64,000 bases of DNA from an uncultured Bacilli bacterium. GTDB taxonomy: Bacteria > Bacillota_I > Bacilli_A > RF39 > UBA660. Positions 3,193 through 27,212 of this stretch are shown here, piece by piece. Below the pieces are notes generated by a model. It saw only the letters and a program-made list of their open reading frames with translations, was not told the DNA's origin and did not search any database. Position 1 is the first letter of the stretch; the number at the start of each line of letters is the position of its first letter. The stretch is taken from positions 13,011-77,010 of the forward strand of contig CAKPGR010000003.1 of NCBI GenBank assembly GCA_934155005.1, written 5' to 3'. The translations under genes were made by a program, and so were the position numbers.

Positions 3193-4653
3193 ATGGAAAA
3201 ATATAAAGTATTAATCGGCCTTGAAATGCACTGTGAAATAAGTAATACAAATACAAAAGTTTTTTCAAGAGCTAGAAATAGTTATAGTACATTACCTAAC
3301 GGAAATATTAATCCTTTGGATATGGGATTTCCTGGAACACTTCCAGTTGTTAATAAAGAAGCTGTAAAAAAATCTCTTATGATGAGTCTAATTTTAAATT
3401 GTAAGCAACCAGAATATTTATATTTTGAAAGAAAAAATTATTATTATCCTGATTTACCAAAAGGATATCAAATTACTCAAGAAACAAAACCAGCGCCAAT
3501 TGGTATATATGGATATTTAAATTATGAATGTAATGGTGAAAATAAATTGGCTAGAATTAATAATCTTCACTTAGAAGAAGATTCAGCAAGTACAGATCAT
3601 TATGATGATTTTTCTTTAATTGACTATAACAGATCAGGAGTACCACTTTTAGAACTTGTAACAGAACCAGATTTTAGAAGCGCTGATGAAGCAGTTGCTT
3701 TTTTAGAAACGATGCGTTCTATTTATCAATATACTAATATAAGTGAAGCAGATAGTAAAAAAGGACAAATTAGATGTGATGTTAATGTTTCTATAATGGA
3801 TAGTGCTTTAGATGAAAAAGATCCTAATAATTGGGGAACTAAAGTTGAAATAAAAAATGTCAATTCATTTGGAGGCGTTAGAGAAGCTATTAATTCTGAG
3901 ATAAAAAGACAAATTGAATTAAAAGAAAATGGTACTTATGATGCTATGGAACAACAAACTAGAAGATATGATGAAGAAACAAATAGTACAATTTATATGA
4001 GAGGAAAAGTTGATGCCATAGACTATAAGTATTTTGTAGAACCAAACATTCCTAAAATAAAAATTGATCCAAATTGGGTTCAAAGTATAAAAAAAGAAAT
4101 TCCAGAACTTGCATATGATAGAAAGAAAAAATATATGAATGAATATAATTTGTCAAATTATGATGCAACAATATTAGTTAAAGATAAAAGTATTTCTGAT
4201 TATTTTGAAGAATGTATAAAATTTGGTTCAACACCAAAGGTGGCTTCGAATTGGATAACAAGTGTTATTTTAGGATTTATAAATAAATATGAAATTAAGA
4301 TTGATAAAATATTTACAACACCAAAAATGCTGACAGAATTAATCCTTTTAGTAGAAAATGGTACAATTTCTTCTAAACAAGCTAAATTAGTTTTAGATAA
4401 ATCATTGACAGAAAATAAAACTCCTACTGACATAGTCGATGAAGAAGGATTAAAACAAATAGAATCCGTTGATGAAATATTAAACGTAATAGTAGAAGTA
4501 TTAGATGAAAATGAAGATGCTATAAAAACATATAAAAATGGACGTACTAATATAGTTGATTATTTAGTTGGACAGGTTATGAAAAAAACAAAAGGAAAAG
4601 CTAATCCTTCGATAACAAGAAGTAAAATGATTGAAGAAATTGAAAAAAGATAG
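3193..4653 (+). CDS. gatB: Aspartyl/glutamyl-tRNA amidotransferase subunit B
   Basis: 486 aa; N-terminal GatB/GatE catalytic core motifs (VLIGLEMHCEI, YDPNGSQ-like) and C-terminal YqeY-like tail; 2 nt after the gatA stop. Confidence 0.95.
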   Translation: MEKYKVLIGLEMHCEISNTNTKVFSRARNSYSTLPNGNINPLDMGFPGTLPVVNKEAVKKSLMMSLILNCKQPEYLYFERKNYYYPDLPKGYQITQETKPAPIGIYGYLNYECNGENKLARINNLHLEEDSASTDHYDDFSLIDYNRSGVPLLELVTEPDFRSADEAVAFLETMRSIYQYTNISEADSKKGQIRCDVNVSIMDSALDEKDPNNWGTKVEIKNVNSFGGVREAINSEIKRQIELKENGTYDAMEQQTRRYDEETNSTIYMRGKVDAIDYKYFVEPNIPKIKIDPNWVQSIKKEIPELAYDRKKKYMNEYNLSNYDATILVKDKSISDYFEECIKFGSTPKVASNWITSVILGFINKYEIKIDKIFTTPKMLTELILLVENGTISSKQAKLVLDKSLTENKTPTDIVDEEGLKQIESVDEILNVIVEVLDENEDAIKTYKNGRTNIVDYLVGQVMKKTKGKANPSITRSKMIEEIEKR

Positions 4654-4670
4654 AACATTCTATCTTTTTT
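4648..4670 (+). terminator. Rho-independent terminator after gatB
   Basis: Stem agataga/tctatct overlapping the gatB stop codon, followed by TTTTT. Confidence 0.7.
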
Positions 4671-4760
4671 AGTTGTAAATAAATTACTTGATTTACGATG
4701 TAAAAGTATTACGCGTAATTTACGAAATGTAAAGGTATTGGCTAATTAGGCACTTTTGTC

Positions 4761-4790
4761 TTGACAATGAAACCGGGGGGGGGTTATAAT
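4761..4790 (+). promoter_or_regulatory. Sigma-A promoter of the T7SS-like locus with a G9 homopolymer in the spacer
   Basis: TTGACA 4761-4766, TATAAT 4785-4790, 18-nt spacer containing GGGGGGGGG (4775-4783); downstream AGGGAGG RBS and ATG 4838. Confidence 0.6.
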
Positions 4791-4837
4791 TTGAATATAG
4801 TAGGAGAACTACTTACTTATTAAAGGGAGGTAAAAAA

Positions 4838-5479
4838 ATGGCAATGACAGGATTTGATCCAAGTGTTGTTGGAACATCAATTAAAGCAGTAGATAATGCA
4901 TATAAAGAATTAGTTAACCAATTAGGTAATGAAATGCAAACAAAATTTGTAAATGGGATGGCTGATAAGTGGGCATGTGTTAATGCACAAACATTTTTTA
5001 GAGATGCTTTCAAACCATCTGTTGATGAATTAATTAATAATTCAAATAGAGTATTTGAAAGTGTTATTCAAGCTATGAATAGTGCTGGAAGAGCTTGGGC
5101 TAGTAGTACTGGTTCTTCATATTCTCAAGTTTCATTTTCAGTAATTGATAAAAAAATGGATATTGGAAATATTAGGGAAAATATTGGTGGAGTTAGAGGT
5201 ATTGATTTACAATCAACAAATTCAGTAATTAATCAATTACCTGTAATAGCTACATCTGCTGGACAAGCTTTAACTAGTGCTCAACAAGCAGTTCAAAATT
5301 GTGGTTTTATTGGTGGAAATCAAGCAAGTAATTTAATTTCATCACTTGGAACTATAAAATCAAGAATTAATTCGGCTGTAACAGATTTAACTAATGAAGC
5401 TAAAAGTGCTATGGAACAAACCGTTTCTACTTATACAGATACTGAAGGTCAAGTTTCAAAAGCTTTTCAAGCTGAATAA
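4838..5479 (+). CDS. 213-aa helical protein, first gene of the T7SS-like locus; candidate secreted substrate (divergent WXG100-superfamily-like, W-x-G degenerate to W-A-C)
   Basis: Position as first gene behind the locus promoter with very strong RBS. MAM... N-terminus and a KWACVNAQTFFRDAF block align loosely to the NWEGQAFSRFEEQF region of EsxA-type proteins. No TM segments. Confidence 0.35.
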   Translation: MAMTGFDPSVVGTSIKAVDNAYKELVNQLGNEMQTKFVNGMADKWACVNAQTFFRDAFKPSVDELINNSNRVFESVIQAMNSAGRAWASSTGSSYSQVSFSVIDKKMDIGNIRENIGGVRGIDLQSTNSVINQLPVIATSAGQALTSAQQAVQNCGFIGGNQASNLISSLGTIKSRINSAVTDLTNEAKSAMEQTVSTYTDTEGQVSKAFQAE

Positions 5480-5481
5480 TC

Positions 5482-5505
5482 TAAGAACTACCTTGGTAGT
5501 TCTTA
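5482..5505 (+). promoter_or_regulatory. Perfect 11-bp stem hairpin directly after the first T7SS gene (transcript stabiliser or partial terminator)
   Basis: taagaactacc/ggtagttctta inverted repeat; weak U-tract, so probably leaky. Confidence 0.5.
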
Positions 5506-5526
5506 AATTATATAAAGGGTGATTTT

Positions 5527-6087
5527 ATGAATATAAAAGTTAGTATATTAAAGACTGAATATGAAAAATTAAATAGATTAATAGAAGACTATAATTTTTC
5601 AATTCTAAATTTATATAATGAATTGTCTTTTTCAGAAAATTATTGGTATGATAAACACTCTTTAACTTTTTTTGACAATGTAAAAGTGGAAAAAAGAAAA
5701 AATTTAAATATGATTTCAGAATTAAATAATATAAAGGATATTTTTGGGTTACTTTTAAACGAATATAGTCAAATTGGTAATAATATTAGTTGCGTTATAG
5801 AAAATAAAAATATGGTTTTAAATCATATTGATGACTATATCAATAGAATTAGAGAAATTATTAACTTATATAATAGATTAAATTTATCTTTTAATCCTAA
5901 GGAAGCTAGTTATTTATATAATCATAAAAATATATTAGAAAATAATTATAGTAATATGCAAAGCATAAGAAACAATGTTAAATATTATTTTGAAAGAATA
6001 GAGAATATTGAACGAGAAGTAAATTTACAATTATCTAGAATTAATATTGAATATTTAAAAGAAACTAATTATAGCGGGGTATTATAA
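5527..6087 (+). CDS. Hypothetical 186-aa soluble helical protein (T7SS locus)
   Basis: Good RBS (AAAGGGTGA); no TM segments; Asn/Ile-rich helical pattern; translationally coupled to the next gene (ATAATG overlap). Confidence 0.5.
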   Translation: MNIKVSILKTEYEKLNRLIEDYNFSILNLYNELSFSENYWYDKHSLTFFDNVKVEKRKNLNMISELNNIKDIFGLLLNEYSQIGNNISCVIENKNMVLNHIDDYINRIREIINLYNRLNLSFNPKEASYLYNHKNILENNYSNMQSIRNNVKYYFERIENIEREVNLQLSRINIEYLKETNYSGVL

Positions 6088-6383
6088 TGAAAAGTATTTT
6101 AAATGAAGAAAATTTAAGACAAAGTATTGAAAAAATTCATATATATCAAAATGATGAAAATAATCAACTATCGAATATTAAAAATATTATGGATGGTATT
6201 GGATATTTTTATTTGTCACAAAATACAAGAAAAATAGATGAAATTAATTTAAATATGAGTAAAAAAATTACAACTATCAAAAATATACATTATAACAATA
6301 TTTATGTTTTAAAGCATAATATATTTAAATATCAAAATATTAAAATACAAGTTGAAAGTAAATTTAACAATATAGTGGGGTAG
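6087..6383 (+). CDS. Hypothetical 98-aa helical protein, WXG100-sized (T7SS locus)
   Basis: Start overlaps the previous stop; RBS AGCGGGGTA; about 100 aa helical, no W-x-G. Confidence 0.45.
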   Translation: MKSILNEENLRQSIEKIHIYQNDENNQLSNIKNIMDGIGYFYLSQNTRKIDEINLNMSKKITTIKNIHYNNIYVLKHNIFKYQNIKIQVESKFNNIVG

Positions 6384-6386
6384 CAT

Positions 6387-6701
6387 ATGAAAAAAGTAAA
6401 AAAGAAAAAGTATATTTCAAAAACTGTGTCTAAAACAAAATATAATATATCAACACCTACAAAAAGCATTAATTATGACAACTATAACAAATTAGCTGTT
6501 GATTTAAACTATATAAGAGTTAAATTTAATGAATTGAATAATAAATATCCAGAAGTTATAAATAATTTAAAGGCTTCAATTTTTATTGATAATCATACAA
6601 TAAATGAAGATAATTTAAATTATATAAATAATGACAATATAAAGATAACTAATGAATTAACAAATATAGTTATTCCATCTATTAAAAATAAAATATATTA
6701 A
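6387..6701 (+). CDS. Hypothetical 104-aa Lys/Asn-rich protein (T7SS locus)
   Basis: RBS AGTGGGGTA similar to that of the preceding gene; no TM. Confidence 0.45.
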   Translation: MKKVKKKKYISKTVSKTKYNISTPTKSINYDNYNKLAVDLNYIRVKFNELNNKYPEVINNLKASIFIDNHTINEDNLNYINNDNIKITNELTNIVIPSIKNKIY

Positions 6702-6759
6702 AAAATTTTAAATTTATTATAAATATTGTTTTTAATTGGAAATAGAAAGGGTGGTAATT

Positions 6760-9700
6760 GTGATAATTTATTTATATTTAGAAGATAAACTATTAACTTT
6801 TAGATTACCTAATCAAATATTAGGAAGTTATTCTTTTGATGAATATGATGAAGAAGAAGATAAACTAATCAATATAGATGCTAAAGATAATAATTGGATT
6901 TTATATTCAACTAAAAATTCACAAATTTTAAATGGAAATAATATTATTCAAAATATTGTTTTAAAGCCTGATAATTTTTATGTTCTAAAAAGAAATAATA
7001 AAAACTATTTGATTTATACAACAAGTAGTTTTAATAATAACAATACACTTTATAAATTTGATGAAAAATTGAATTTGATTGTAGGGAATAGTAATGAATG
7101 TAACATAAATTATCAAATAGGTTTATTAAACGACTGTTTAATAAAAATACACTATGTGAATAATGTTTTAGTCCTAGAAAAAACAGGAAATAGATTAATT
7201 TATATCAATAAAAATGCCTTTAATTTAGCTTCTGTGAGACTTAATTGCGGTACAGAAATTGATATTTATGGTCTTAGAATATATATATTTAATAATATGG
7301 TTTTAATAAACAATCCGGCAAATAGAGTAAAAATAAATGTTCAAGCTTGTTTCTTAACTAATTATTTTATGCCAGAGTTTCAAGAACCTAAAAATATAGA
7401 AATAAAAGATATTGATTTATATAATAAAGATGATTATTTTTTAAAGTCTCCTAGAATTAGAAGATTGATAGAAACAAAAAATATAAAATTAACGTCACCT
7501 CCAAAGACAGAAGAAGAAAAAGATATGCCTTTAATTTTAACCTTAGGACCAATGTTTACTATGGGTATTATCTCCGTTGTTACACTAATAAGTAGTATAT
7601 CAAAAATAATTTCAAAAGAAGCTACTATCGCGGAGTCAATTACATCATTAATTACAGCAGGTGCTATGTTATTATCTATGTTACTTTGGCCCCTGTTAAC
7701 AAATTTTTATAATAAAAAAATTAAATCTAAAAAGTTAAAAGAATCAGTAGATAAATATGAAACATACTTAGAAGAAAAAAGAAAAAGTTTTGAAAAAGAA
7801 GAAAAAATTCAAAGAGATATTTTAAATGAAAATTTACTTTCAACAGAGGAATGTTTCAATATTATAAAAAATAAAAATATTAATTTTTGGAATAAAAGAA
7901 TTGATCAAAATGATTTTTTGAATGTTAGAATTGGTAAAGGTAATCAACTTTTAGATATTAAACTTGATTATCAAGAAGATGATTTTATTTTAGAAAATAA
8001 CACGCTTAGAGAAAAAATAGATAAAATGATTGAAGAATTTAAATATATTGAAAATGTTCCAATAGGTTATTCATTTTACGATAATCCTATAACAGCTATT
8101 ATGGGAAATAGAAATAAATGTATGTCTTTTGTGGATAATTTATTATTACAACTATTATCTTTTTACACATATGAAGACTTAAAAATTGTTTTGTTTACAG
8201 ATTCATTTAAAAAAGATAGATGGGAATATATAAAATATTTAAATCACAATTTTGATAATGAAAGAGATTTTAGATTCTTTTCATCAGACTATGAATCGGC
8301 AAAAACAATAATGGAATATTTAACTTTTGAACTAAATAATAGACTTAGTGTTGAAGGCGCTACATTATATAAGCCACATTATTTCATAGTTGTTGATGGT
8401 TATGATCGTGTAAAACAATTTGATTTTATAAAACAATTAACAGAAACAGATAAAAATCTAGGATTTACTTTGGTAATTATTGAACAAAAAATAGGTAATT
8501 TACCAAGTAAATGTAGTAACTTTATAACTATTGGTCAAAAAACATCAGGACTACTTAAAAACTCATACGAAAAACAAGAAAAAATAGATTTCATAGATGA
8601 AGTAAATAACACCTTTAATATGTTAGATATATCAAAATATTTAGCTAATATTCCAATTGAATTTGAAGAAGGAATTAAACAGTTACCAAATGCTATATCA
8701 TTTTTAGAAATGGAGAAAGTTGGTAAAGTTGAACAATTGAATATACTAAACCGTTGGAATACCAATGACGCTACATCATCACTAAAGGCAGAAGTAGGTG
8801 TGGATGAAAATAATGAATTGATATATCTTGACTTGCATGAAAAATTTCATGGCCCACATGGTTTGATAGCAGGTATGACAGGATCAGGTAAATCAGAATT
8901 TATTATTACTTATATTTTATCTTTAGCTATAAATTATAGTCCTGATGATGTTGAATTTATATTGATAGATTATAAAGGTGGTGGTTTAGCTTTTGCATTT
9001 GAAAATAAAACTACTGGTATGTGTTTACCACATTTAGCTGGGACTATTACAAACTTAGATAAAGCTGAAATGGATAGAACATTAGTAAGTATTGATAGTG
9101 AAATAAAAAGAAGACAAAAAGTATTTAATGATGCTAGAGATAAATTAGGTGAAAGTACAATTGATATATATAAATATCAAAGATTTTATAAAGAAGGTAA
9201 ATTGGATTTACCAGTGCCACATTTATTTATTATTTGTGATGAATTTGCCGAACTAAAAACACAACAACCTGATTTTATGGATAATTTAATTAGTGTAGCT
9301 CGTATTGGTAGATCACTTGGAGTGCATTTGATTTTAGCCACTCAAAAACCAAGTGGTGTTGTTAATGATCAAATTTGGTCAAATACTAAATTTAGAGTTT
9401 GTCTAAAAGTTCAAGATGAATCAGATAGTAAAGAAATGTTAAAAAGACCAGAAGCTGCTAGTTTAAAACAAACAGGTAGATTTTATTTACAAGTTGGATA
9501 TGATGAATTATTCTTATTAGGACAATCAGGGTGGTGTGGCGCTAAATATTACCCATCCGATAAAATAGTAAAGCAAGTTGATAAAAGTATTAATTTTATT
9601 AATGATTGTGGTAATATTATCAGAAGTGCTGAGGCTGGTAGTAATCAAGTTGTTCAAAGTAATGGTGAACAATTATCAGCTATTGTTAATAATATAATTG

Positions 9701-11313
9701 AAGTATCTAATATTACTAATAAAAAAGCTACTAAATTATGGCTTGAAAATATACCTGAGATTATTATTGCTGATGATTTAGAAAAGAAATACAATGTAAA
9801 TTATGAAAGATATAATCCAACAGCTATAATTGGAGAATATGATGCACCTGAAAATCAAGAACAAGGTGTTGTAACTTATAATTTGCTTTCTAATGGTAAT
9901 ACTGTAATTTATGGTATGGATGGTTCCGAAAGAGAGTCATTAATTAATACAATAATTTATTCATCTACTAAAAATTTTAGTGCTGATGAAATAAATTACT
10001 ATATTGTTGATTATGGATCAGAATCATTTAGAAAATATTCAAAATTACCTCATTTAGGTGGAATAGTATTTGCATCAGAAGATGAAAAATATCATAATTT
10101 ATTTAAATTGATAAGAGAAGAATTACAAAAAAGAAAAAAATTATTTGCTGATTTTGGTGGTGAATATACTAACTTTATCCAAAATAGTGAAACTAAATTA
10201 CCAATATATACAATAATACTAAATAACTATGATTCAATTTATGATAGTAATCCTGAAATATATGATGAACTTCCTGATCTTATGAGAGATTCAGAAAGAT
10301 ATGGAATTATCTTTATTATTACTTGTAATGCTGTTAATTCTGTTCAAACTAAATTAACGCAAAATATTAATAATTCATATGCTTTAAAATTAAAAGATTC
10401 ATCTGATTATAGTATGGTATTTGGTAAGAATACAAAAATAATACCAAGAAATATTAATGGTAGAGGATTAGTTATGTTGGATAATATTCACGAATTTCAA
10501 ACTGCTAGCATAGTAAATAAAGACATGGATTTAAATAAATTTATTAATGATTTCATAAATAATGAGAGAATTAAAAATAAAAACAGTATTAATAAAATAC
10601 CTACATTACCAGATATTGTTAGATATAATGATATTTCTAATTATATAAGGGGATTAAATTGTATTCCTATTGGTATCGAAAAAAATGAATTAAACGTTAG
10701 CTTAGTTGATTACACATCTAATATTGGTAATATTATTACTTCAAATAAACTTGTAAATATGGAAAAATTTGTTAAAAGTCTTTTAAATGTTTTCCACAAT
10801 ATAAATAATTTTGACACAATTATTTTTGATGTAAGTAATAGTTTAAAATTAAATAATCAAAATTATCCTAATTATTTTGTAAAAGATGTTGATAAAATGA
10901 TGAATGTTGTAGTTGATTATGTGGAAAAAGAAATTAATAGCGGATCTAGCAAAGAAGGCGTTATTGTTATTTATGGATTAGATAAATTTATGACTAAGCT
11001 ACAAGATAAATCTTTATTAGATAAATTACTTGAAACAGTTAAAAATTATGAACATATGAGTGTGATTATAATTGAAAATGTTTTAAAAATTAAAAAATAT
11101 AATTTTGATACTTGGTTTTCAACATATTTTAATGTTAATGATGGTATATGGATTGGAAGAGGAATAGCTGATCAAAATTTACTTCATTTAGCTTCAATAA
11201 CAAAAGACATGACAGTTGATATTAAAAATGACATGGGATATTATGTCAGCGAAGGAGTAGGCGTTAAAGTTAGATTTATAGATTTTATAACGGAGGATAA
11301 CAATGAAAAATAA
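6760..11313 (+). CDS. essC: Type VII secretion FtsK/SpoIIIE-family ATPase EssC/YukB-like (N-terminal FHA-like region, 2 TM helices, three P-loop domains)
   Basis: About 1517 aa from GTG 6760 (RBS AAAGGGTGG; the track ORF starts at an upstream TTG). TM pair around PLILTLGPMFTMGIISVV...AGAMLLSMLLWPLL. Walker A LIAGMTGSGKSEF in domain 1 (about nt 8875), degenerate IYGMDGSERES in domain 2, and a third NTPase-like domain. Confidence 0.85.
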   Translation: MIIYLYLEDKLLTFRLPNQILGSYSFDEYDEEEDKLINIDAKDNNWILYSTKNSQILNGNNIIQNIVLKPDNFYVLKRNNKNYLIYTTSSFNNNNTLYKFDEKLNLIVGNSNECNINYQIGLLNDCLIKIHYVNNVLVLEKTGNRLIYINKNAFNLASVRLNCGTEIDIYGLRIYIFNNMVLINNPANRVKINVQACFLTNYFMPEFQEPKNIEIKDIDLYNKDDYFLKSPRIRRLIETKNIKLTSPPKTEEEKDMPLILTLGPMFTMGIISVVTLISSISKIISKEATIAESITSLITAGAMLLSMLLWPLLTNFYNKKIKSKKLKESVDKYETYLEEKRKSFEKEEKIQRDILNENLLSTEECFNIIKNKNINFWNKRIDQNDFLNVRIGKGNQLLDIKLDYQEDDFILENNTLREKIDKMIEEFKYIENVPIGYSFYDNPITAIMGNRNKCMSFVDNLLLQLLSFYTYEDLKIVLFTDSFKKDRWEYIKYLNHNFDNERDFRFFSSDYESAKTIMEYLTFELNNRLSVEGATLYKPHYFIVVDGYDRVKQFDFIKQLTETDKNLGFTLVIIEQKIGNLPSKCSNFITIGQKTSGLLKNSYEKQEKIDFIDEVNNTFNMLDISKYLANIPIEFEEGIKQLPNAISFLEMEKVGKVEQLNILNRWNTNDATSSLKAEVGVDENNELIYLDLHEKFHGPHGLIAGMTGSGKSEFIITYILSLAINYSPDDVEFILIDYKGGGLAFAFENKTTGMCLPHLAGTITNLDKAEMDRTLVSIDSEIKRRQKVFNDARDKLGESTIDIYKYQRFYKEGKLDLPVPHLFIICDEFAELKTQQPDFMDNLISVARIGRSLGVHLILATQKPSGVVNDQIWSNTKFRVCLKVQDESDSKEMLKRPEAASLKQTGRFYLQVGYDELFLLGQSGWCGAKYYPSDKIVKQVDKSINFINDCGNIIRSAEAGSNQVVQSNGEQLSAIVNNIIEVSNITNKKATKLWLENIPEIIIADDLEKKYNVNYERYNPTAIIGEYDAPENQEQGVVTYNLLSNGNTVIYGMDGSERESLINTIIYSSTKNFSADEINYYIVDYGSESFRKYSKLPHLGGIVFASEDEKYHNLFKLIREELQKRKKLFADFGGEYTNFIQNSETKLPIYTIILNNYDSIYDSNPEIYDELPDLMRDSERYGIIFIITCNAVNSVQTKLTQNINNSYALKLKDSSDYSMVFGKNTKIIPRNINGRGLVMLDNIHEFQTASIVNKDMDLNKFINDFINNERIKNKNSINKIPTLPDIVRYNDISNYIRGLNCIPIGIEKNELNVSLVDYTSNIGNIITSNKLVNMEKFVKSLLNVFHNINNFDTIIFDVSNSLKLNNQNYPNYFVKDVDKMMNVVVDYVEKEINSGSSKEGVIVIYGLDKFMTKLQDKSLLDKLLETVKNYEHMSVIIIENVLKIKKYNFDTWFSTYFNVNDGIWIGRGIADQNLLHLASITKDMTVDIKNDMGYYVSEGVGVKVRFIDFITEDNNEK

Positions 11314-11566
11314 AGTTTTAGTAAAAGTAATGATGCCAGAAATGGATTTAACATTTGATATTTTTATTCCAGTTAATGAATTAGTTTGGAAAATAAAAAA
11401 ATTGATAATTAAATGTGTTTCAGATATTACCTGTTATCCATTAGATATAAAAGAAGAATATTATTTAGTAAATAAAAGTAATGGTAATTTTTATAATAAT
11501 AATGATGTTGTTATAAATACAGATATTAGAAATAGTACCGAATTAATATTAGTGTCAAAAGTATAA
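11303..11566 (+). CDS. esaB: Small ubiquitin-like (beta-grasp) protein, YukD/EsaB-like
   Basis: 87 aa, overlaps the essC stop by 11 nt; size, alternating beta-strand pattern and position next to essC fit the YukD/EsaB family. Confidence 0.45.
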   Translation: MKNKVLVKVMMPEMDLTFDIFIPVNELVWKIKKLIIKCVSDITCYPLDIKEEYYLVNKSNGNFYNNNDVVINTDIRNSTELILVSKV

Positions 11567-11595
11567 AAAATATTATATAGAAGAGGAGAAATTTT

Positions 11596-11934
11596 ATGAC
11601 TTATGAAAAATTTTTACCAATAGGAACTGTTGTTATATTGAAAGGAGGTTCTAAAAGGTGTATGATTACCGGTTTTTGCGTAACTGGTGATAAAGATGAA
11701 AACATGTATGATTATTGCGGTGTTTTATATCCAGAAGGAGTTTTATCATCTAATCAAACTTTGATGTTTAATCATAATCAAATAGATAAACTTTATCATT
11801 TAGGTTTTATTGATGATGAGGAAAAACAATTTAAATTGAAATTAAATGAAATTATAAATAATACTAAGAGTGATATTTCAAATAATAATCAACAAATAAA
11901 TAATATAACAAATCAATCTAATAATATAAATTAA
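11596..11934 (+). CDS. DUF4176-like protein (T7SS-associated family)
   Basis: N-terminus MTYEKFLPIGTVVILKGGSKRCMITGF matches the LPIGSVV-LK-GG...MI-G signature I associate with DUF4176; Asn/Gln-rich tail. Confidence 0.45.
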   Translation: MTYEKFLPIGTVVILKGGSKRCMITGFCVTGDKDENMYDYCGVLYPEGVLSSNQTLMFNHNQIDKLYHLGFIDDEEKQFKLKLNEIINNTKSDISNNNQQINNITNQSNNIN

Positions 11935-11978
11935 GAAAATATCATTGATTTATAATAAAATAGAAAAGGAAGTGAGTT

Positions 11979-14432
11979 ATGTCTGATGTAAGTAAGATAT
12001 CAGGTAATATAACACCAAATTTGAACAATTTTGGTAATATAGTTAAAAAGTCAATATCTAATAGTGTTACAGGCTTACAAGGCATGCCTCAAGACCAAGT
12101 AACTTCAACAGTGGATTTGTCATCTTTTGTAGATGTTAAAGAAAATATTACTGATGCATTTCAAAAATTCTCTGTTTCTTATGATGAGACGGCTACTAAA
12201 ATAGCTGATAAGGCAGAAAGTAAAATAGGTGAAATGCTTAGAAAACTGGATTCTTATCAAAAAGAAGCTAATGATTGGTGGAACAATGAAGCAAAGCCAT
12301 TCTTTGATAAAGCCGCAAAAAATATTGAAAAGGCATACATAGAGTCAGCTGCTATTCAAACTAGAGTTGATAGTACAGCAGCGACAGCAGTATTATCAGT
12401 TGGTGAAGGTATTTTTAAAGTGGGAGAGTGGGTTGTAGATGGAGGCGCTATAGTTGCAACAGCATGTGATTCCCTTCAAACCTTGGCTATTGATTTAGGA
12501 AAATACGTTGGATGTAAAGTAACTAATCAAGAGTTTGAATCTGAAACAGCTAAAATGTGGAATAATACAAAAGATTTTGTTTCAAATGACTTTGTTGGTG
12601 GAGCATTTGATAAATTTTATGATAATACAAAAGTTGGAAATTATTTAAAGAAAAGTTCCTATGCTTTTGATAATACGCGTGAATTTGGTAAAGGATTTGG
12701 GGAAGCTATTGGTGTAATAGCTATATCTGCTTTAACATTTGGAGCAGGTGGTGCAGCAATAGGAGGTGCAGGTGCAGCTGGATCTGCTGGTGTTTTTGGA
12801 AGTAGTGCAGCGCAACTTGGAGTAACAGCCGGTGCAGTAGGATTTGGTAAAGGATCAGAAAAAGCATGGTCTGATGGTGCTGGTATAGCTGAGGGATTAG
12901 CTACTGGTGCAGCTACTGGTGCTTGGGAAGGATTTCAATGGTTTATTGGTGGTAAAATTGGTGGCTCTAACATTGCTGGTGAGTCTCATAAAGTATTAAA
13001 TAGTTTATCAAGAATTGTTTTAGATGGTATAGATGGTGGTGTGGAAGGATTCACACAACCAGTTATTAATTCAATATATCAAAAAGGATATTATGATGAA
13101 AATGATATTTATGTAGAATTTGATGAAGAAGATAATTATGTTGACAAAGTAAAAGAATTATATGATGATAATGGTGGATGGAATAGTGTTCGTCAAGGAT
13201 TTATAATGGGATCTGTTATGTCTGCACTTGGTGAAGTATCAGGTGGAGTCAAACAACTTAAAAATGAAGGTAAAACAAAACCTAATAAAATTGATAATGA
13301 TGTAAAAATAAAATCAGTTGATAGTGGTCAAAATAAAAATACAATAACATTTGAAGAATATCAAAATATGAAAAAAGAAGTTGATGTTAAATCTTTACAA
13401 GAAAGACTTGATAAATTAAGAAAAATAATTGATACTGATGAATATAGAAGGTATACTGAAAGAAATAAACAACATGAAGCTCAAGTTTTAAGACCTGATT
13501 TTGACAATATAGATAAAGAAATAGCTTCAATTGAGACCAAATTAGCGAGTAATCCTATTTCTAAAAAAATAGAAAAAACATTAAAAGATGAAATCAATTC
13601 TTTGATAAATAAAACTGATGATGTTGAAACAAAAGCTAGAAAATTATATGTTGAATTGAATAAAAGAGTTTCCTATGATTTTAATTATATTAAGGGTAAT
13701 AAGGAAGTACAACAAGAACTTTTAAATAGAAAAGTTACATTTGATAATATGAAAAATAACGAGGTTGTATGTAAGGGTTGGTCAGATTTATTTAATGAAC
13801 TTTTAAAAGATAATGGTATTGATTCTAAAATCGTTTCTACATCTAAAAAATCGCATTATTGGGTTGAAATTAATTTAGAAGATAGTATAATAATTGCTGA
13901 TGCAACAGATGCTTTAGGTATTGGTGGACCGGATTTAAGTAATTGCAAGAATGGATTTTCAACATTGGGGTTTGTTAAGACACATAAAGGTATGTCAAAT
14001 ACAAGATTAAAAAATATGTATGATAATAATCCAGGAGTTGAAGAGGCGGTTAAGAGCCAATGGAAAAAAGTTGATAGTAAAATTGAATATAATAATAATG
14101 GGGCTTATTTAGAAGACATTGTTGAAAAATCAAGAGAATTATTTGGAAAAAATAATTCAAACAATGATACTAGTTTATTTAAACTAGATATTCCAGATAA
14201 ATCAGATGGTTATAGCTTATTTGGTTATTTGAACAAGATGAAAGAAATTACTGGAAATAGTACTGCAAATATAAATTATGGATTTTTCAAAAATGGTAAT
14301 AATTACGAGTTTACAACAATACTTACCGAAAATAATAATTATATGGTATGTAATAATTCAATTGGAAAGAAAATATTTGATAATTTTATAGATTTTGATA
14401 ATTTTCTTCATTCAAATAATATTTCAAGATGA
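11979..14432 (+). CDS. Large T7SS-type polymorphic toxin candidate: N-terminal helical domain, Gly/Ala-rich glycine-zipper segment, C-terminal transglutaminase-like cysteine protease domain
   Basis: 817 aa. Gly-zipper GAGGAAIGGAGAAGSAGVFGSSAAQLGVTAGAVGFGKG at about nt 12700-12990. C-terminal VVCKGWSDLFNELLKDNGIDSKIVS...KSHYWVEINLED...IIIADATDA matches the transglutaminase core pattern C-x-x-[WFY]...G-I...H-x-W-V-E...D-x-T. Confidence 0.6.
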   Translation: MSDVSKISGNITPNLNNFGNIVKKSISNSVTGLQGMPQDQVTSTVDLSSFVDVKENITDAFQKFSVSYDETATKIADKAESKIGEMLRKLDSYQKEANDWWNNEAKPFFDKAAKNIEKAYIESAAIQTRVDSTAATAVLSVGEGIFKVGEWVVDGGAIVATACDSLQTLAIDLGKYVGCKVTNQEFESETAKMWNNTKDFVSNDFVGGAFDKFYDNTKVGNYLKKSSYAFDNTREFGKGFGEAIGVIAISALTFGAGGAAIGGAGAAGSAGVFGSSAAQLGVTAGAVGFGKGSEKAWSDGAGIAEGLATGAATGAWEGFQWFIGGKIGGSNIAGESHKVLNSLSRIVLDGIDGGVEGFTQPVINSIYQKGYYDENDIYVEFDEEDNYVDKVKELYDDNGGWNSVRQGFIMGSVMSALGEVSGGVKQLKNEGKTKPNKIDNDVKIKSVDSGQNKNTITFEEYQNMKKEVDVKSLQERLDKLRKIIDTDEYRRYTERNKQHEAQVLRPDFDNIDKEIASIETKLASNPISKKIEKTLKDEINSLINKTDDVETKARKLYVELNKRVSYDFNYIKGNKEVQQELLNRKVTFDNMKNNEVVCKGWSDLFNELLKDNGIDSKIVSTSKKSHYWVEINLEDSIIIADATDALGIGGPDLSNCKNGFSTLGFVKTHKGMSNTRLKNMYDNNPGVEEAVKSQWKKVDSKIEYNNNGAYLEDIVEKSRELFGKNNSNNDTSLFKLDIPDKSDGYSLFGYLNKMKEITGNSTANINYGFFKNGNNYEFTTILTENNNYMVCNNSIGKKIFDNFIDFDNFLHSNNISR

Positions 14433-14450
14433 TGATAGGGATGATAATTT

Positions 14451-14711
14451 ATGGATAAAATAATTGAACTTTTAGAGCGTAAAAAAGGCAAAATAAATAC
14501 AGATTTAGATTTAGAAAAATATAATCATATAAAAGAAATTATTAAACATGAAGATATATTTTTTTATCTTGATATGTCAACAGTACTTGGGATTTTAGAA
14601 TTTTTAGATGTAGAACCTGATGAAAGATTAAAGTTATATTATTCTTTAACTTCAATGGAAAATTATGAAAAAAATATTCCAAATGTTAGAATTATTAATG
14701 GAAAAAAATAG
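14451..14711 (+). CDS. Small 86-aa protein immediately downstream of the toxin; candidate immunity protein
   Basis: Position only; no TM; acidic. Confidence 0.3.
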   Translation: MDKIIELLERKKGKINTDLDLEKYNHIKEIIKHEDIFFYLDMSTVLGILEFLDVEPDERLKLYYSLTSMENYEKNIPNVRIINGKK

Positions 14712-14715
14712 AAAA

Positions 14716-14738
14716 AAATGGAAATTATTTTTCCATTT
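14716..14738. terminator. Bidirectional terminator between the convergent toxin/immunity operon and the VanY-like genes
   Basis: aaatggaaa/tttccattt stem flanked by an A-run upstream and a T-run downstream. Confidence 0.6.
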
Positions 14739-15399
14739 TTTTATATTCTTCTAATGTTTTATTATTTTCATGTAAATATTTAGCTAATTTCTTTCCAACA
14801 TATCTATAATGCCAAGGTTCATATTTAAACCCTGTAATTCTTTCTTTATTTTTAGGATACCTTAAAATAAAACCATACTTATGAGCATTTTTTATCATCC
14901 AATTAAATTCTTTTGATTCTTCAAATAAATTATAATCATCATTAGACCCCATTACATCAACTGCTAAACCTGTTTGATGCTCAGAGTGACCTGGTTTAGC
15001 AGATGCTTTTAAAGCATAATCTAAGCCTTTTTCTTTTACATAATAATTAAATAATTCATCTTGATATTCATAACTTCTATAAGCGGATACAGCAGTAATA
15101 TTATATTCCTTTTTTTTAGCATCTCTACTTAAAGCTTCAAAATTAATAGCAGCACATCTTCTCAAAAACTTATTTTGATTGGAGTATATAACATCTAATT
15201 TTATTAAATCATCAGGTTTATAATTACTATTTAATTTATTATTTTTATTAACTAAAACATCAATTTTATTAGGGTTATCAATTGTCTTAACATTTTTATA
15301 AAATTTAGGCCCAAAAATATTTAAATCCTTAGTATAAAAAAACAAAATAAGTAAAATGAGAATAAAATAAAAACAAAATTTAAAAAATTTTAAACTCAT
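14725..15399 (-). CDS. Membrane-anchored D-alanyl-D-alanine carboxypeptidase, peptidase M15B/VanY family (paralog 1)
   Basis: N-terminal TM; SAYRSYEYQ, HSEHQTGLAVDV and EPWHYRYVG motifs of VanY-type zinc peptidases. Confidence 0.8.
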   Translation of the reverse strand: MSLKFFKFCFYFILILLILFFYTKDLNIFGPKFYKNVKTIDNPNKIDVLVNKNNKLNSNYKPDDLIKLDVIYSNQNKFLRRCAAINFEALSRDAKKKEYNITAVSAYRSYEYQDELFNYYVKEKGLDYALKASAKPGHSEHQTGLAVDVMGSNDDYNLFEESKEFNWMIKNAHKYGFILRYPKNKERITGFKYEPWHYRYVGKKLAKYLHENNKTLEEYKKMEK

Positions 15400-15438
15400 A
15401 ATCTCACCACTATATTATATGAAAAAATGTTAAGTAGT

Positions 15439-16512
15439 TTACTTAACATAATATTCATAATACTCTTCAAAAGTTAAATTCTTTTCAAATATCATTTTAG
15501 CAGCTTCAATTCCAACGTATCTATAATGCCATGACTCATATATATATCCTGTTATATTAACTTTATCCTTAGGATATCTTAAAATAAAACCATATTTATA
15601 AGCATTCTCTTTTAACCAAGTAAATTCCTTAGTTGTTTCAAAATTTCCAAGAGTTGTAGTAGGAGTAGTAACATCAAAAGCAAGACCTGTTTGATGTTCA
15701 GAATAACCAGGACGAGCTGAATAAGTATCAGCTTTATTATAACCATCAACAGAAGCATAATTTTCATATAATGAATTTTGTGTTTTAAAACTTCTGTAAG
15801 GTGATCTAATATATAGATTTAAATTTTTATTTTTAGCGTCTTTCCACATTTTTTTATAAGCGTCATATACAGTACTATTTAAATACTTACCACTAACTCC
15901 ATAAGTGGATTCTATTTCAACTAAATCACTAGGAATATAGTCATCATCTAACTTGTTATATTTATTAACTAGAATTAAAAAGCCCTTAGATAAATCAGTC
16001 TTTTTAACGTTAGTATAATAATTATAATCTCTACCACTATTAACCATTGTAATAATATTACTTACATCATCACTATCATAAGCTAAATATCTATCTAAAT
16101 TATCCATTTTAAAATATTTGCTTTTCATTAAAGAAATGGTTTTATCAGTATAAGTTATATTTTTATCAAAAAAGTTATTATTAACAACATAAATAATATC
16201 ATCTAAATTAAAATTATATACATTCATAAATTCAATATATTTATCTAAATTATCTTCCTTAAAATCTTTATTTTTTATCAGTTCAATATATTTTTTATTA
16301 TAATCATAATTTAATAATTTCTCTGGATCTTTTAAATTATTTATAATTTTAATATCACTATTAGAATAACCTACATTTTTAAATTTATCGTTTAAAGATA
16401 TAGGTTTATTAGAAATTAAAAAGATGATAATTAAAATAATTAATATAATAACTGGAATAATAAATACACTTTTCTTTAGTTTTCTTTTTTTCATTTTATC
16501 ACTTATCCTCAT
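15439..16512 (-). CDS. Peptidase M15B/VanY family (paralog 2) with extra N-terminal domain
   Basis: N-terminal TM; SPYRSFKTQ, YSEHQTGLAFDV, ESWHYRYVG; shares NLDRYLAY motif with paralog 3. Confidence 0.8.
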   Translation of the reverse strand: MRISDKMKKRKLKKSVFIIPVIILIILIIIFLISNKPISLNDKFKNVGYSNSDIKIINNLKDPEKLLNYDYNKKYIELIKNKDFKEDNLDKYIEFMNVYNFNLDDIIYVVNNNFFDKNITYTDKTISLMKSKYFKMDNLDRYLAYDSDDVSNIITMVNSGRDYNYYTNVKKTDLSKGFLILVNKYNKLDDDYIPSDLVEIESTYGVSGKYLNSTVYDAYKKMWKDAKNKNLNLYIRSPYRSFKTQNSLYENYASVDGYNKADTYSARPGYSEHQTGLAFDVTTPTTTLGNFETTKEFTWLKENAYKYGFILRYPKDKVNITGYIYESWHYRYVGIEAAKMIFEKNLTFEEYYEYYVK

Positions 16513-16636
16513 ATTAAATTATAACACGTATAATAAAAAATGTTAAATAAATATATTAAACAAAATAAAAAAATTTAGAAATTATGTCTATAATATTAAT
16601 AAAATCTAGAAGGTCACAAAAAAAGTTAATTATTTA

Positions 16637-17581
16637 TTAACTTTTTTCAATATAATATGCATAGTATTCATCGTAAGTGATATTTTCTTTATGTATTTTC
16701 AAAGCCATATCTTTTCCAACATATCTATAATGCCAAGGTTCATAATCATATCCAGTTATGTCCTCTTTTCCTTTTGGATATCTTAAAATAAAACCGTATT
16801 TATAAGCATTTTCTTTTAACCATTTACTTTCATTTGAATCATCAAAATTATCCATTGTACTATTATAAGTTACAATATCAAGCGCTAAACCTGTTTGATG
16901 TTCAGAATATCCAGGACGAGCTGCATATAAATCAGCCCATTTTTCACCATTTTTAGTAGCATATCTGTTCCATATACTATCTTGGTCTTCATAAGACCTA
17001 TAAGAAGCATTAACAATTAAATTAAGACCTTTTAATTTAGCTGCTTTATACATTTCTATAAAAGCATCAACAACTTCTTTATTCGCTTTATTATCAGCAA
17101 AAGCATAAGTTGTACCAATATTTATTATGTCAGTAGCTTCATAAGATTTATCTAAATGATAAAATTTATTTATTAACATTAAGTTTCCTAAACTTGTATC
17201 AGTTTCTTTAATAGCGTCTTCATCATACCATTCATAGTCTGCTCCTACATTAACAATACTTACAACATGTGACATTTTATCATTTTTATTTTCTTTATAA
17301 TAAGCCAAATATCTATCTAAATTTTTATATAAAAAGTATTTTTGTTTTACAAAAGAAACTAGTGATTTACTATATTTTTTTGTTAAAACGTCATCAATTT
17401 CTTTATCTTTAAGTTTAAGTATTATTTTTATTTCACTATCATCATAACCAATTTTACCTAATTTATATTCATAACTATTTATATATTTTATGTATTTAAA
17501 ACATCCAATACTTGCTATTATGATAAAAATAATAAGTCCAATTAAAATATAAAATGATTTTTTTAATCTTCTTTTTTTCAT
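16637..17581 (-). CDS. Peptidase M15B/VanY family (paralog 3) with extra N-terminal domain
   Basis: N-terminal TM; ASYRSYEDQ, YSEHQTGLALDI, EPWHYRYVG. Confidence 0.8.
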   Translation of the reverse strand: MKKRRLKKSFYILIGLIIFIIIASIGCFKYIKYINSYEYKLGKIGYDDSEIKIILKLKDKEIDDVLTKKYSKSLVSFVKQKYFLYKNLDRYLAYYKENKNDKMSHVVSIVNVGADYEWYDEDAIKETDTSLGNLMLINKFYHLDKSYEATDIINIGTTYAFADNKANKEVVDAFIEMYKAAKLKGLNLIVNASYRSYEDQDSIWNRYATKNGEKWADLYAARPGYSEHQTGLALDIVTYNSTMDNFDDSNESKWLKENAYKYGFILRYPKGKEDITGYDYEPWHYRYVGKDMALKIHKENITYDEYYAYYIEKS

Positions 17582-20218: not shown

Positions 20219-20238
20219 AAAGATATTAATTTATCTTT
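20219..20238. terminator. Bidirectional terminator between serS and the convergent kinase-like gene
   Basis: aaagata/tatcttt stem flanked by A8 and T9 runs; contains the stop codon of the minus-strand gene. Confidence 0.55.
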
Positions 20239-21202
20239 TTTTTGTTAAAATTTTTACATCGTGATTTAAATTAGCTTCTATATTTTTGCTTTGCTCGAAG
20301 AATAAATAATTCTCTATGCTTTCTGCTTCTAAATATTTAATCATGTTAGTAATACTATCATAGTTTTTATAAATATCATATAAAGGTAGACTTAAATTAT
20401 CAAAAAAACTATATATGGATTCTAATTCTTCATTATATAAGCTTTTATTTATTTCAATTATAATTTTAGAATCAGTCAAATTAACAAGGTTTTTAATATA
20501 TAACATATTTGTTAAATTTATGTCTTTGACATTTAAAATAATAATAGGACTATTAATGTCAATACTATCTAGAAAGGTATTAATTTTTTTATAATTTTTT
20601 AAAAGACTTTCTTTTAATTCTATTGCTGCTTTATATTTATCTAATTTTGGATATAGGTATAAGCTATTATTGTTTTCAACAAAAGATAATATAGTATTGC
20701 TAAGTTTATTAAAACATATATTTAGATAAATAGAATTTTTAAAATTAGTTAATTTAGTAAAAGGATCATCTAAATCAATTATTACAATATCACCATTAGG
20801 ACGACATATAATATTATTTAGTTTGTAATCAAGGGGATAAATTTTTTTATCAGTTAAGTTTTTAGAAGCTTTTACTATATTCCTAGAAATTTTTATTTTT
20901 TCTTTCTTATTATATTTATTCATGACTTTATCTAAAGTTTCTCCTTCTACAAAATCATAATTAGTTGCCGCTATTTTATCGTTAATATAAATAAAGTTAT
21001 TTATGTGATAACATCCATCTATTTTATTTATTCTTGATTTTAATTTGTTTAATTTATATTTATTGACATAAAAAGTACATCTGTGATAATCTTTTTCCCA
21101 TTCTTTATAATATATTTTAAATGCTTGGTTTCCGGATTTATACACTTTTCCATATGAACCTGACCCTATATACTTTAAATTATCCGTTTTAAATGTTTCC
21201 AT
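20231..21202 (-). CDS. Minimal eukaryotic-type protein kinase-like N-domain (about 170 aa) fused to an uncharacterised C-terminal domain
   Basis: Gly-loop IGSGSYGKVYK, beta3 AFKI, catalytic-loop analogue LDYKLNNII (D-x-K-x-x-N) and VIIDLDD (DLD in the DFG position). Confidence 0.5.
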   Translation of the reverse strand: METFKTDNLKYIGSGSYGKVYKSGNQAFKIYYKEWEKDYHRCTFYVNKYKLNKLKSRINKIDGCYHINNFIYINDKIAATNYDFVEGETLDKVMNKYNKKEKIKISRNIVKASKNLTDKKIYPLDYKLNNIICRPNGDIVIIDLDDPFTKLTNFKNSIYLNICFNKLSNTILSFVENNNSLYLYPKLDKYKAAIELKESLLKNYKKINTFLDSIDINSPIIILNVKDINLTNMLYIKNLVNLTDSKIIIEINKSLYNEELESIYSFFDNLSLPLYDIYKNYDSITNMIKYLEAESIENYLFFEQSKNIEANLNHDVKILTKKR

Positions 21203-26774: not shown

Positions 26775-27200
26775 ATGAAAGAAGCGATAGGTAGTATTCC
26801 ATTATACAATTTTATAATTATATTTATAGTCATTACCTTTGGCTTTTTATCTGCTACACTTATGTACTACAAAGCTTTCAAGTTAAATAGTAAAATAGCT
26901 TATTCCTTAGAAAAATATGAAGGGTATAATGATTTATCTTCTAAGGAAATTAATAAAAATTTGGGAACATTAGGATATCGCGTTGGTAGTACTAATGATT
27001 GTCCTGTTAAACAAGGAAATAGAATAGGTACATCAGGAATTAATTATCCTATTTGTATTTATGAAATAACTAGAAAAGATAGTGCATATTTTAATTATGG
27101 GATAATTACATATATCTATTTAGATATTCCTCTTATAGGAGGTACCTTTAAAATCCCAGTATATACTGAATCTGAAAAGATTTTTAAATTTTCAAGTTAG
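26775..27200 (+). CDS. 141-aa pseudopilin-like protein (M-K-E-A-I-G N-terminus, TM helix, extracellular domain with Cys pair); paralog of the next gene
   Basis: MKEAIGSIPLYNFIIIFIVITFGF...; conserved LGTLGYRVGS...C-x20-C...YGIITYIYLDIPLIGG block shared with the 27213 gene. Confidence 0.55.
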   Translation: MKEAIGSIPLYNFIIIFIVITFGFLSATLMYYKAFKLNSKIAYSLEKYEGYNDLSSKEINKNLGTLGYRVGSTNDCPVKQGNRIGTSGINYPICIYEITRKDSAYFNYGIITYIYLDIPLIGGTFKIPVYTESEKIFKFSS

Positions 27201-27212
27201 AGTGGTGAATTT

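Follow-up and report, generated by a model that had tools for sequence, protein, structure and literature searches.

A candidate streamlined type VII secretion locus, probably phase-variable, with EssC as the sole membrane component encoded with the machine in uncultured small-genome Bacilli

Can an EssC-type ATPase serve protein export by a type VII secretion system (T7SS) where EssB, EsaA and EssA, three of the four membrane proteins regarded as standard among relatives of its host, are not encoded beside it? The question is raised by a locus at positions 4761-14711 of a 64,000-nucleotide stretch of contig CAKPGR010000003.1 from an uncultured Bacilli bacterium; the whole 64-kb stretch is referred to as the window. 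A preliminary description of this DNA had noted a compact locus similar to the T7SSb of Firmicutes with no recognisable EsaA, EssA or EssB, and had offered two explanations, namely a T7SS that is minimal or divergent and pairs EssC with other partners, or membrane partners encoded elsewhere in the genome. We favor, with some reserve, the view that the locus encodes a streamlined T7SS, probably phase-variable, whose machine genes include no membrane component other than EssC, and which exports polymorphic toxins aided by divergent WXG-like proteins and a DUF4176 protein.

The locus comprises nine open reading frames (ORFs) on the plus strand which, with gaps of 0-58 nt or overlaps, form one operon at window 4761-14711. 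The coordinates were rechecked and all nine ORFs are intact, in agreement with the single operon-like unit described before. In order, they encode four small helical proteins termed A213, B186, C98 and D104, the ATPase EssC, an 87-aa ubiquitin-like protein (ubl), a DUF4176 protein, an 817-aa toxin and an 86-aa ORF. The left border is marked by a hairpin and T-run after gatB at about 4645-4672, the right border by a convergent VanY gene (14725-15399, minus strand).

The large ATPase matched the NCBIfam model TIGR03928, an equivalog for EssC of Firmicutes, with 961 bits (cutoff 778), and the closest solved structure was YukB of Bacillus subtilis (9qks, E 3.5e-154). The alternative that the protein is a DNA translocase of the FtsK/SpoIIIE type was rejected, because the FtsK model NF007615 scored merely 56.8 bits at a cutoff of 1566 and the KOPS-binding gamma domain (Ftsk_gamma) was absent at E<=1 in Pfam and NCBIfam. 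Translation likely starts at the GTG at 6760, which is preceded by the ribosome-binding site AAAGGGTGG, and yields 1517 aa. Two transmembrane (TM) segments were predicted at about residues 259-277 and 294-312 in this numbering. The N-terminal profile matched the FHA structure of EssC (5fwh, 2.4e-4) and the FHA domain of Ki-67 (6e-5), and 16 of 32 EssC family members matched PF00498; at the family level the N-terminal 200 residues or so are thus FHA. A conserved G109-N110 stands in place of the canonical Gly-Arg, from which we infer that the domain lacks the phosphothreonine-binding Arg. Canonical Walker A and B motifs are both confined to the first FtsK-like domain, with GMTGSGKS at residue 705; the second domain has a degenerate GMDGSERE at 1052, and no Walker A was found in the third. 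The preliminary description was therefore right about an EssC with two TM helices and, at the level of the family, an FHA-like N-terminus. Its three P-loop domains stood as three FtsK-like domains; the three P-loops did not, as there is one canonical Walker A.

The EssC partners were searched for in the window and in related loci. In the nine operon proteins, the hidden Markov models of Pfam and NCBIfam for EssB/YukC, EsaA, EssA, WXG100, LXG and YukD gave zero matches at E<=1; this was the search by which the preliminary description wished to see its claim of missing EsaA, EssA and EssB checked. A Pfam scan of about 27 further window proteins, which carry TM segments or have the size of EssB or EsaA, revealed no canonical T7SSb partner in the 64 kb; these proteins belong to housekeeping genes, cell-wall enzymes and a conjugative type IV secretion system (T4SS) cluster at about 26.8-41.4 kb. 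The window contains no ORF of the EsaA/YueB type, i.e. polytopic and of about 1000 aa, and none is conserved next to essC in the relatives, where the large neighbours of essC include tRNA synthetases, recognised by their N-terminal motifs, and putative toxins. For EssA, a small protein with a single TM segment, operon gaps of at most 58 nt leave no space, and the flanks hold no conserved family of small TM proteins. For the most distant relatives, a Pfam scan of 10 proteins encoded within 10 kb upstream of essC yielded no EssB, EsaA or EssA and no other component of a T7SSb; the TM proteins at this place were identified as Ffh, VWA, VanZ, MurA-like, GDSL and NlpC/P60 proteins. Likewise, ORF clustering across 82 loci disclosed no family of TM proteins recurring within 10 kb of essC.

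Two window proteins were considered as EssB candidates and rejected. A 323-aa kinase-like protein (20231-21202, minus strand) has the Gly-loop GSGSYGKVYK and catalytic-loop motifs with a sub-threshold Pkinase score of 22.6 bits (cutoff 31.7); it is soluble, without TM segment, and is not among the proteins conserved in the neighbourhood of essC. A 540-aa protein with a single TM segment (34970-36592) is the NlpC/P60 hydrolase of the conjugative T4SS cluster.

The arrangement recurs in many genomes. Metagenomic homologues of EssC number in the hundreds with 54-72% identity, and 80 EssC loci with 40-61% identity, every one from uncultured Bacilli, were retrieved when each species was represented by a single genome. 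The hosts are labelled as Bacilli, Tenericutes/Mycoplasmatota, Erysipelotrichaceae, Clostridium sp. CAG:451 or CAG:524, and Candidatus Onthousia or Faecimonas, which NCBI places in Bacilli incertae sedis. One relative is a closed chromosome of 1.26 Mb, a metagenome-assembled genome (MAG). Clustering of all ORFs of the window and 83 loci gave EssC in 82 loci from about 80 species-level genomes, ubl in 80, A213 in 54, B186 in 51, D104 in 40, C98 in 33, DUF4176 in 21 and the toxin family in 12. A or B was present in 37 of the 44 loci that extend at least 4 kb to both sides of essC. The genes are usually arranged as essC-ubl-A-B-C-D, with large variable proteins encoded behind them; the window shows a permutation with A-D ahead of essC. 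The flanks of the module are nearly all different: upstream, 76 loci yielded 65 distinct families, and downstream, 71 loci yielded 58. As dozens of independent genomes share this set of genes, the arrangement is not due to chance; it is a trait of a lineage of uncultured Bacilli with small genomes. Only ubl and A-D travel with EssC in the 82 loci, which supports the earlier idea that EssC has other partners in a Firmicute T7SS of minimal or divergent type.

The same observations bear on an alternative that we hold to be possible though doubtful, namely that the machine is a conventional multi-component T7SS, of which the locus is a part, and that EssB-, EsaA- and EssA-like or lineage-specific membrane subunits are encoded elsewhere in the genome. 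The relatives were viewed at 10 kb to either side of essC and this genome at 64 kb. EssC keeps its tandem FHA-like N-terminus, and some partner for this region is to be expected because it docks YukC/EssB in B. subtilis. Furthermore, the window encodes a class A penicillin-binding protein, three VanY proteins, an M23/PcsB protein and a GH25 enzyme, so that the organism is walled with peptidoglycan, the layer that EsaA is thought to span in T7SSb. On the other hand, core components cluster with the ATPase gene in every T7SS subtype described (PMC11217815). Six genes are tightly linked across about 80 species between flanks that nearly all differ, the genomes are very small, as the closed MAG illustrates, and the 64 kb contain no candidate.

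The ubl gene adjoins essC in 80 of 82 loci, the divergence of ubl and EssC is correlated with a Spearman coefficient of 0.82, and the median identity is 50% for both; such co-divergence is as expected of physical partners. Weak full-length matches to the ubiquitin-like profile PF23326 were obtained with 18 of 45 family members (best 8e-5). By its position, size, co-variation and these matches ubl is a candidate equivalent of YukD/EsaB (TsxB).

What are the four proteins encoded upstream of essC? No TM segments or signal peptides were predicted in A213, B186, C98 or D104, and in this respect they are the soluble helical proteins announced by the preliminary description. The structural model of A213 is a single-chain four-helix bundle with W45, a Trp invariant in the family, in the turn of the first hairpin; one family member matched WXG100 (6.5e-7). 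B186 was modelled with low confidence (pLDDT, the predicted local distance difference test, of 68; 3 homologues) as helices 5-37, 43-82, 91-117 and 124-172 forming two hairpins with W40 in the first turn. F155-x3-E159 is conserved, E162 is invariant, and [FY]xxx[DE] occurs within the last 45 residues of 31 of 36 B186 members, three of which matched a YwqH-like model and one LXG. FxxxD of Lap1 and YxxxD/E of T7SSa proteins are export-arm motifs, which the F-x3-E motif of B186 resembles. C98 had no Pfam match; yet residues 8-91 aligned with residues 14-97 of B186 in hhalign with a probability of 78% (E 1.8e-5). D104 matched no family in Pfam or NCBIfam. Most of its relatives have about 82 aa and start mostly at window residue 23, so that the window copy would have either a basic N-terminal extension of 22 residues or an over-called start.

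A-D evolve about twice as fast as EssC (median identity 26-29% vs 50%) and their divergence is weakly correlated with that of EssC, which fits secreted substrates or adaptors better than structural parts of a machine. In addition, the most distant relatives, the loci labelled L079 and L082, have two canonical WXG100 genes after essC-ubl at the position of A-D, with PF06013 scores of 46.8, 38.0, 30.6 and 32.2 bits (cutoff 27.3). A-D are best read as divergent substrates or adaptors of the WXG100 superfamily rather than as substitutes of membrane proteins. Since they look like divergent WXG100- or Lap-type proteins, an EsxA equivalent would be present in disguised form. The claim that four helical proteins take the place of the canonical set is therefore to be divided: the canonical membrane set is absent from the window, whereas an EsxA equivalent does not seem to be missing. 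A structural check for WXG-like hairpins had also been suggested; in the models, a hairpin with a Trp in the turn is seen in the four-helix bundle of A213 and, at low confidence, in B186.

The opposite interpretation, that A-D functionally replace EssB, EsaA and EssA as parts of the apparatus, e.g. as a scaffold bound to the FHA region or as an extracellular conduit or pore, appears unlikely indeed. Proteins without TM segment or signal peptide that evolve at twice the rate of EssC and track it weakly, unlike ubl, are not what it predicts; the Trp turn and [FY]xxx[DE] are motifs of T7SS substrates and targeting factors, and canonical WXG100 pairs stand at the position of A-D in the most distant relatives.

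Additional features are seen in part of the A213 family. Similarity to the flagellin C-terminal helical region PF00700 was seen in 3 of 45 members (best E 5.4e-8); the window copy matched at 6.5e-4 with residues 162-193. This similarity may reflect compositional bias or hint at a self-assembling helical segment. P0272, P0274 and P0301 are 384-426 aa long and carry C-terminal extensions of 170-210 residues without recognisable domain. About 30 residues into its extension P0272 has a DYWGD motif that recalls the Trp turn of B186. There was no Pfam domain in the long extensions and no significant match to the B186 profile. The long proteins may be A-B fusions or effector fusions.

A sub-clade with 43-45% EssC identity (L067, L069, L070, L074, L081) has another set of small genes downstream of essC-ubl. 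Its first gene encodes a hairpin protein of about 100 aa that has CYSG for WXG as well as a C-terminal YxxxD; it is followed by genes of an A213-like protein (236-261 aa) and of proteins of about 72 aa and about 400 aa. L081 carries a second copy of some of these genes (123, 244, 75 and 206 aa) upstream of essC.

The genes downstream of ubl provide the putative cargo. The DUF4176 protein matched PF13780 over its full length (9.7e-28), and in related loci its gene always precedes a toxin gene of the TOX8 family. DUF4176 proteins are documented chaperones of T7SSb toxins (PMC12482557). The toxin has a conserved N-terminal region (aa 1 to about 430) with a W100-x3-E-A-x2-F-F turn and a Gly-rich hydrophobic stretch at about 240-340; the N-terminal 420 aa or so are common to 12 other loci, while the C-termini differ. 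LXG (PF04740) was not matched by residues 1-407 at E<=1. The C-terminal domain matched Transglut_core (E 1.1e-5, 26.1 bits, cutoff 23), and by reading of the sequence the Cys-His-Asp triad is intact, with Cys598, His626 and Asp641/644 in the expected motifs CxGW, HxWxE and DxTD. The domain thereby falls in the transglutaminase-like cysteine hydrolase superfamily, with the corresponding activity predicted.

Strains of the same species, identified through an identical 87-aa protein, allowed a comparison of machine and cargo. Strain L084 shares 100% identity with the window in A213, 93.5% in B186, 92.9% in C98, 88.5% in D104, 98.4% in EssC, 100% in ubl and 93% in DUF4176. The toxins are 99-100% identical over aa 1-400 and 22-30% in the remainder, and from about residue 430 the L084 toxin has an unrelated ADP-ribosyltransferase domain. 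In place of the 86-aa ORF, homologues of which were found in 3 loci only, L084 has an unrelated 111-aa ORF (21.6% identity). DNA homology stops at window 13377 and restarts at 14712, with flanking DNA of 97.7-98.7% identity. Because the C-terminal domain of the toxin and the downstream ORF are swapped together between strains, we regard the pair as a polymorphic toxin with its cognate immunity gene, the 86-aa ORF encoding the predicted immunity protein. The DUF4176-like protein and the large toxin with a small downstream ORF, as previously noted, were confirmed by the PF13780 match and by this swap, respectively.

A different cassette was seen in a human-gut relative with 55% identity (L001-L003: 15752-20040). 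Here two DUF4176 genes are followed by a toxin-family gene, an ADP-ribosyltransferase gene (303 aa), a 68-aa ORF and an ADP-ribosylglycohydrolase gene (318 aa), and then by A-B-C-D. The ADP-ribosylglycohydrolase is likely an enzymatic immunity protein.

A locus lacking components that are essential in Staphylococcus aureus and B. subtilis, with a canonical Walker A in one of three ATPase domains, might be taken for a decaying, non-functional T7SSb remnant, the membrane genes having been lost in the course of genome reduction. Degenerate P-loops in the second and third domain are normal in EssC-family proteins. In contrast to what decay should leave behind, the nine ORFs are intact, the module with intact ORFs is kept in about 80 species at 40-72% EssC identity, and toxin/immunity cassettes are exchanged between strains whose machine genes are 88-100% identical. 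We thus consider a remnant very improbable.

How does the locus relate to known systems? At least ten T7SS gene arrangements, T7SSa-j, were described in RefSeq genomes by Garrett, Higginson and Palmer in 2024, with a core of TsxA (WXG100), TsxB (ubiquitin-like) and TsxC (ATPase); most subtypes (T7SSc-j) lack EssB, EsaA and EssA (PMC11217815). A T7SS without these three proteins is therefore not new in itself and less surprising than the preliminary description assumed. As for the broad core, the ATPase belongs to the EssC/EccC family by its TIGR03928 and YukB matches and two TM segments; the window proteins remain below PF06013 for WXG100, with a conserved hairpin-turn Trp in A213 and B186. 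The composition found here, i.e. an FHA-bearing EssC of the T7SSb type, ubl, four conserved WXG-like proteins and DUF4176-linked toxins, matches none of the described T7SSa-j as judged from the genes. The locus contains no kinase, phosphatase, vWA, DUF6382-FHA, propeller, Ig-repeat or other membrane component. Its host lineage lies outside the survey of RefSeq isolates because it consists of MAGs only, and no description of this arrangement was found in the literature on RF39, MAGs or further T7SS subtypes. The most plausible reading of the locus is a streamlined T7SS subtype that has so far not been described and would join T7SSa-j.

With the T7SSb of S. aureus and B. subtilis the locus shares the type of EssC, the FHA-like N-terminus with GN for GR, a small gene for a putative ubiquitin-like protein beside essC, the DUF4176 chaperone, a polymorphic toxin with helical N-terminus, the immunity gene and strain-variable cassettes after essC. 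It differs in that EssB/YukC, EsaA/YueB and EssA are absent from the window and no membrane family recurs by essC in 80 relatives; the thresholds of the WXG100, LXG and YukD models are not reached by any window protein, the locus having instead four helical proteins that are conserved and measure 80-215 aa, and ubl follows essC while in T7SSb it precedes essB. The nearest subtype is T7SSg, the simplest one described, with an ATPase, the ubiquitin-like TsgB and two WXG100 proteins and without EssB, EsaA and EssA (PMC11217815). Its gene content is approached by the distant relatives L079 and L082 with essC-ubl and two WXG100 genes. However, TsgC has no FHA, unlike the EssC described here, and the DUF5050 beta-propeller TsgL and adjacent Tad pilus genes of T7SSg have no counterpart among the scanned window proteins. 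T7SSg hosts are Acetivibrio and Paenibacillus as opposed to uncultured small-genome gut Bacilli.

Small helical WXG-like proteins near a toxin with helical N-terminus, an F-x3-acidic motif as in the FxxxD arm of Lap1 and a DUF4176 gene adjoining the toxin gene are also found with the LXG toxins and Lap1/Lap2 of Streptococcus intermedius and S. suis. Here, in contrast, the helical proteins are linked to essC and not to a given toxin, with one set per locus even where toxins differ; A213 and B186 have twice the size of Lap proteins, and there was no match to LXG, DUF3130 or DUF3958. EspB and PE-PPE, single-chain or paired four-helix-bundle substrates of mycobacterial T7SSa, are among the closest known proteins.

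The operon is preceded by the only 12/12 match to the sigma-70 consensus in 4500-15000, located at 4761-4790 with an 18-nt spacer; the start at 4761 coincides with the start coordinate of the locus in the preliminary description, and the first ATG follows 47 nt downstream. The spacer contains a G9 tract at 4775-4783, the sole run of at least seven G or C in the 64 kb (25% G+C; 0.002 runs of at least nine expected). Between identical flanks the tract of the T7SS promoter is G9 in the window and L087 and G10 in L096. A near-identical promoter with G9, G10 or G11 lies before a sortase-linked surface-protein gene upstream of A213 in other strains (L084-L095). Runs of at least eight G or C number nine in the 1.62 Mb of related loci, where 0.8 are expected, and eight of the nine are intergenic, 40-81 nt upstream of a gene start, including those of essC (L006), A213 (L007) and a T7-locus gene (L042). 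Homopolymer-tract phase variation of promoters is classical in Neisseria, Haemophilus and Mycoplasma. The present tract resembles such phase-variable promoters in that G9-G11 is located between -35 and -10 and differs in length from sample to sample with identical flanks. To our knowledge, poly-G phase variation has not previously been linked to a T7SS operon of Bacillota. Homopolymer variants associated with ESX-1 are reported for Mycobacterium tuberculosis (PMC11898584). Because samples with identical flanks differ in the length of the tract, the operon promoter is probably phase-variable by slipped-strand changes of the homopolymer and hence of promoter spacing, promoter activity and switching being predicted from the DNA.

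G8-G11 tracts in -35/-10 spacers were located at L006:8224, L007:8216, L042:8717, L084:932, L085:373, L088:1898, L090:689, L095:217 and L096:997. Apart from that, the T7SS operon, with A213 100% identical, was found in two upstream contexts in one species (window 4820 vs L084:2016 and L085:1459; L088:231-2937). It lies directly after gatCAB in the window, L087 and L096, or else after a divergent sortase gene and the gene of a surface protein (332 aa) that has a signal peptide and, at its C-terminus, an anchor. As both contexts use a near-identical poly-G promoter core a rearrangement at the promoter is suggested. A frameshift in the surface-protein gene is suggested by the gene calls, since some assemblies have one ORF of 332 aa and others have 98 + 207 aa.

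In the cryo-EM study of B. subtilis YukB-YukC-YukD a YukB hexamer is modelled as the central channel with a pore of about 13 A; YukD is clasped between the FHA and DUF domains of YukB, and YukC forms an outer crown with its pseudokinase docked at the FHA region (bioRxiv 10.1101/2025.01.24.634720). This model renders a core of EssC and ubl mechanistically plausible. By analogy, an EssC hexamer would be both membrane channel and motor, with ubl as a clamp on its FHA and DUF domains, the role of YukD in B. subtilis. A213, B186, C98 and D104 would act as core substrates of the EsxA type, as targeting partners of the Lap type, or both, presenting a Trp turn and a [Y/F]xxx[D/E] export arm to EssC. 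The DUF4176 protein may hold the 817-aa toxin until export, the transglutaminase-like domain of which would attack competitors while the 86-aa protein protects the producer. Expression of the operon would probably be switched by slipped-strand changes in the poly-G spacer.

Several points weigh against the proposal of a streamlined, switchable T7SS built on EssC. It is drawn from sequence comparison and predicted structures, and the partner searches covered 64 kb here and 10 kb to either side of essC in each relative. The candidate export motif of A213, Y199xxxE near the C-terminus, has a counterpart in 13 of 45 family members only. ubl has no match to YukD (PF08817) by sequence, and profile searches of PDB miss YukD, too; comparison of the ubl family with YukD and EsaB sequences by hhalign was not significant. 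Of the YukD/EsaB-like mini-protein postulated earlier, a likeness to ubiquitin is hinted at by the weak PF23326 matches; a sequence match to YukD was not obtained. Finally, differences in G-tract length between assemblies may in part be due to homopolymer errors in sequencing or assembly.

A bolder version of the proposal, which we regard as rather unlikely, holds that EssC with its ubl clamp is a complete export machine in a walled Gram-positive organism, where EssB, EsaA and EssA are accessories. The four WXG-like proteins, one of them EspB-like, would build a structure that replaces EsaA and spans the wall or penetrates the target, and the poly-G tract would be an on/off switch. The composition of the T7SSb channel and its required subunits have yet to be settled; should the streamlined system be real, it would supply natural evidence for the EssC hexamer as the sole membrane conduit and would be a far simpler target for reconstitution and cryo-EM. 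The catalogue of T7SSa-j from RefSeq isolates would be extended into uncultured small-genome gut Bacilli, which are common in human and animal gut metagenomes. Commensals with reduced genomes are thereby suggested to join in toxin-mediated competition, possibly under phase-variable control.

The features of the operon are compiled in Table 1.

Table 1. Genes and predicted promoter of the candidate T7SS operon (window coordinates)
Feature	Position	Strand	Properties
Operon promoter (predicted)	4761..4790	+	TTGACA 4761-4766, TATAAT 4785-4790, G9 tract in spacer
A213, 213 aa	4838..5479	+	soluble single-chain four-helix bundle (model), WXG100-like
B186, 186 aa	5527..6087	+	soluble, helical, two hairpins (model)
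C98, 98 aa	6087..6383	+	helical; kin to N-terminal hairpin of B186
D104, 104 aa	6387..6701	+	small helical protein
EssC-type T7SS ATPase, 1517 aa	6760..11313	+	TIGR03928 match; tandem FHA-like N-terminus, 2 TM, DUF/stalk region, 3 FtsK-like domains
Ubiquitin-like protein (ubl), 87 aa, TsxB/EsaB/YukD position	11303..11566	+	start overlaps essC end by 11 nt
DUF4176 protein, 112 aa	11596..11934	+	PF13780; predicted toxin chaperone
Polymorphic toxin, 817 aa	11979..14432	+	conserved N-terminal delivery region, variable C-terminal domain
86-aa ORF	14451..14711	+	predicted cognate immunity protein

Directly downstream of the operon and convergent on it are three tandem paralogous genes of VanY D-Ala-D-Ala carboxypeptidases on the minus strand (window 14725-17581; 224, 357 and 314 aa). 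Each paralogue has an N-terminal TM anchor, and the trio is also kept in the sister strain L084. Farther away, window 26775-41435 on the plus strand is occupied by the conjugative T4SS cluster of the Gram-positive type, which is probably an integrative conjugative element. It encodes a pilin-like protein (29231-30145), a 691-aa protein with 5 TM segments, a VirB4-like ATPase (33163-34947), the NlpC/P60 hydrolase mentioned above, a glucosaminidase/C39-like hydrolase (37238-38755) and a VirD4/TraG coupling protein (39456-41435).

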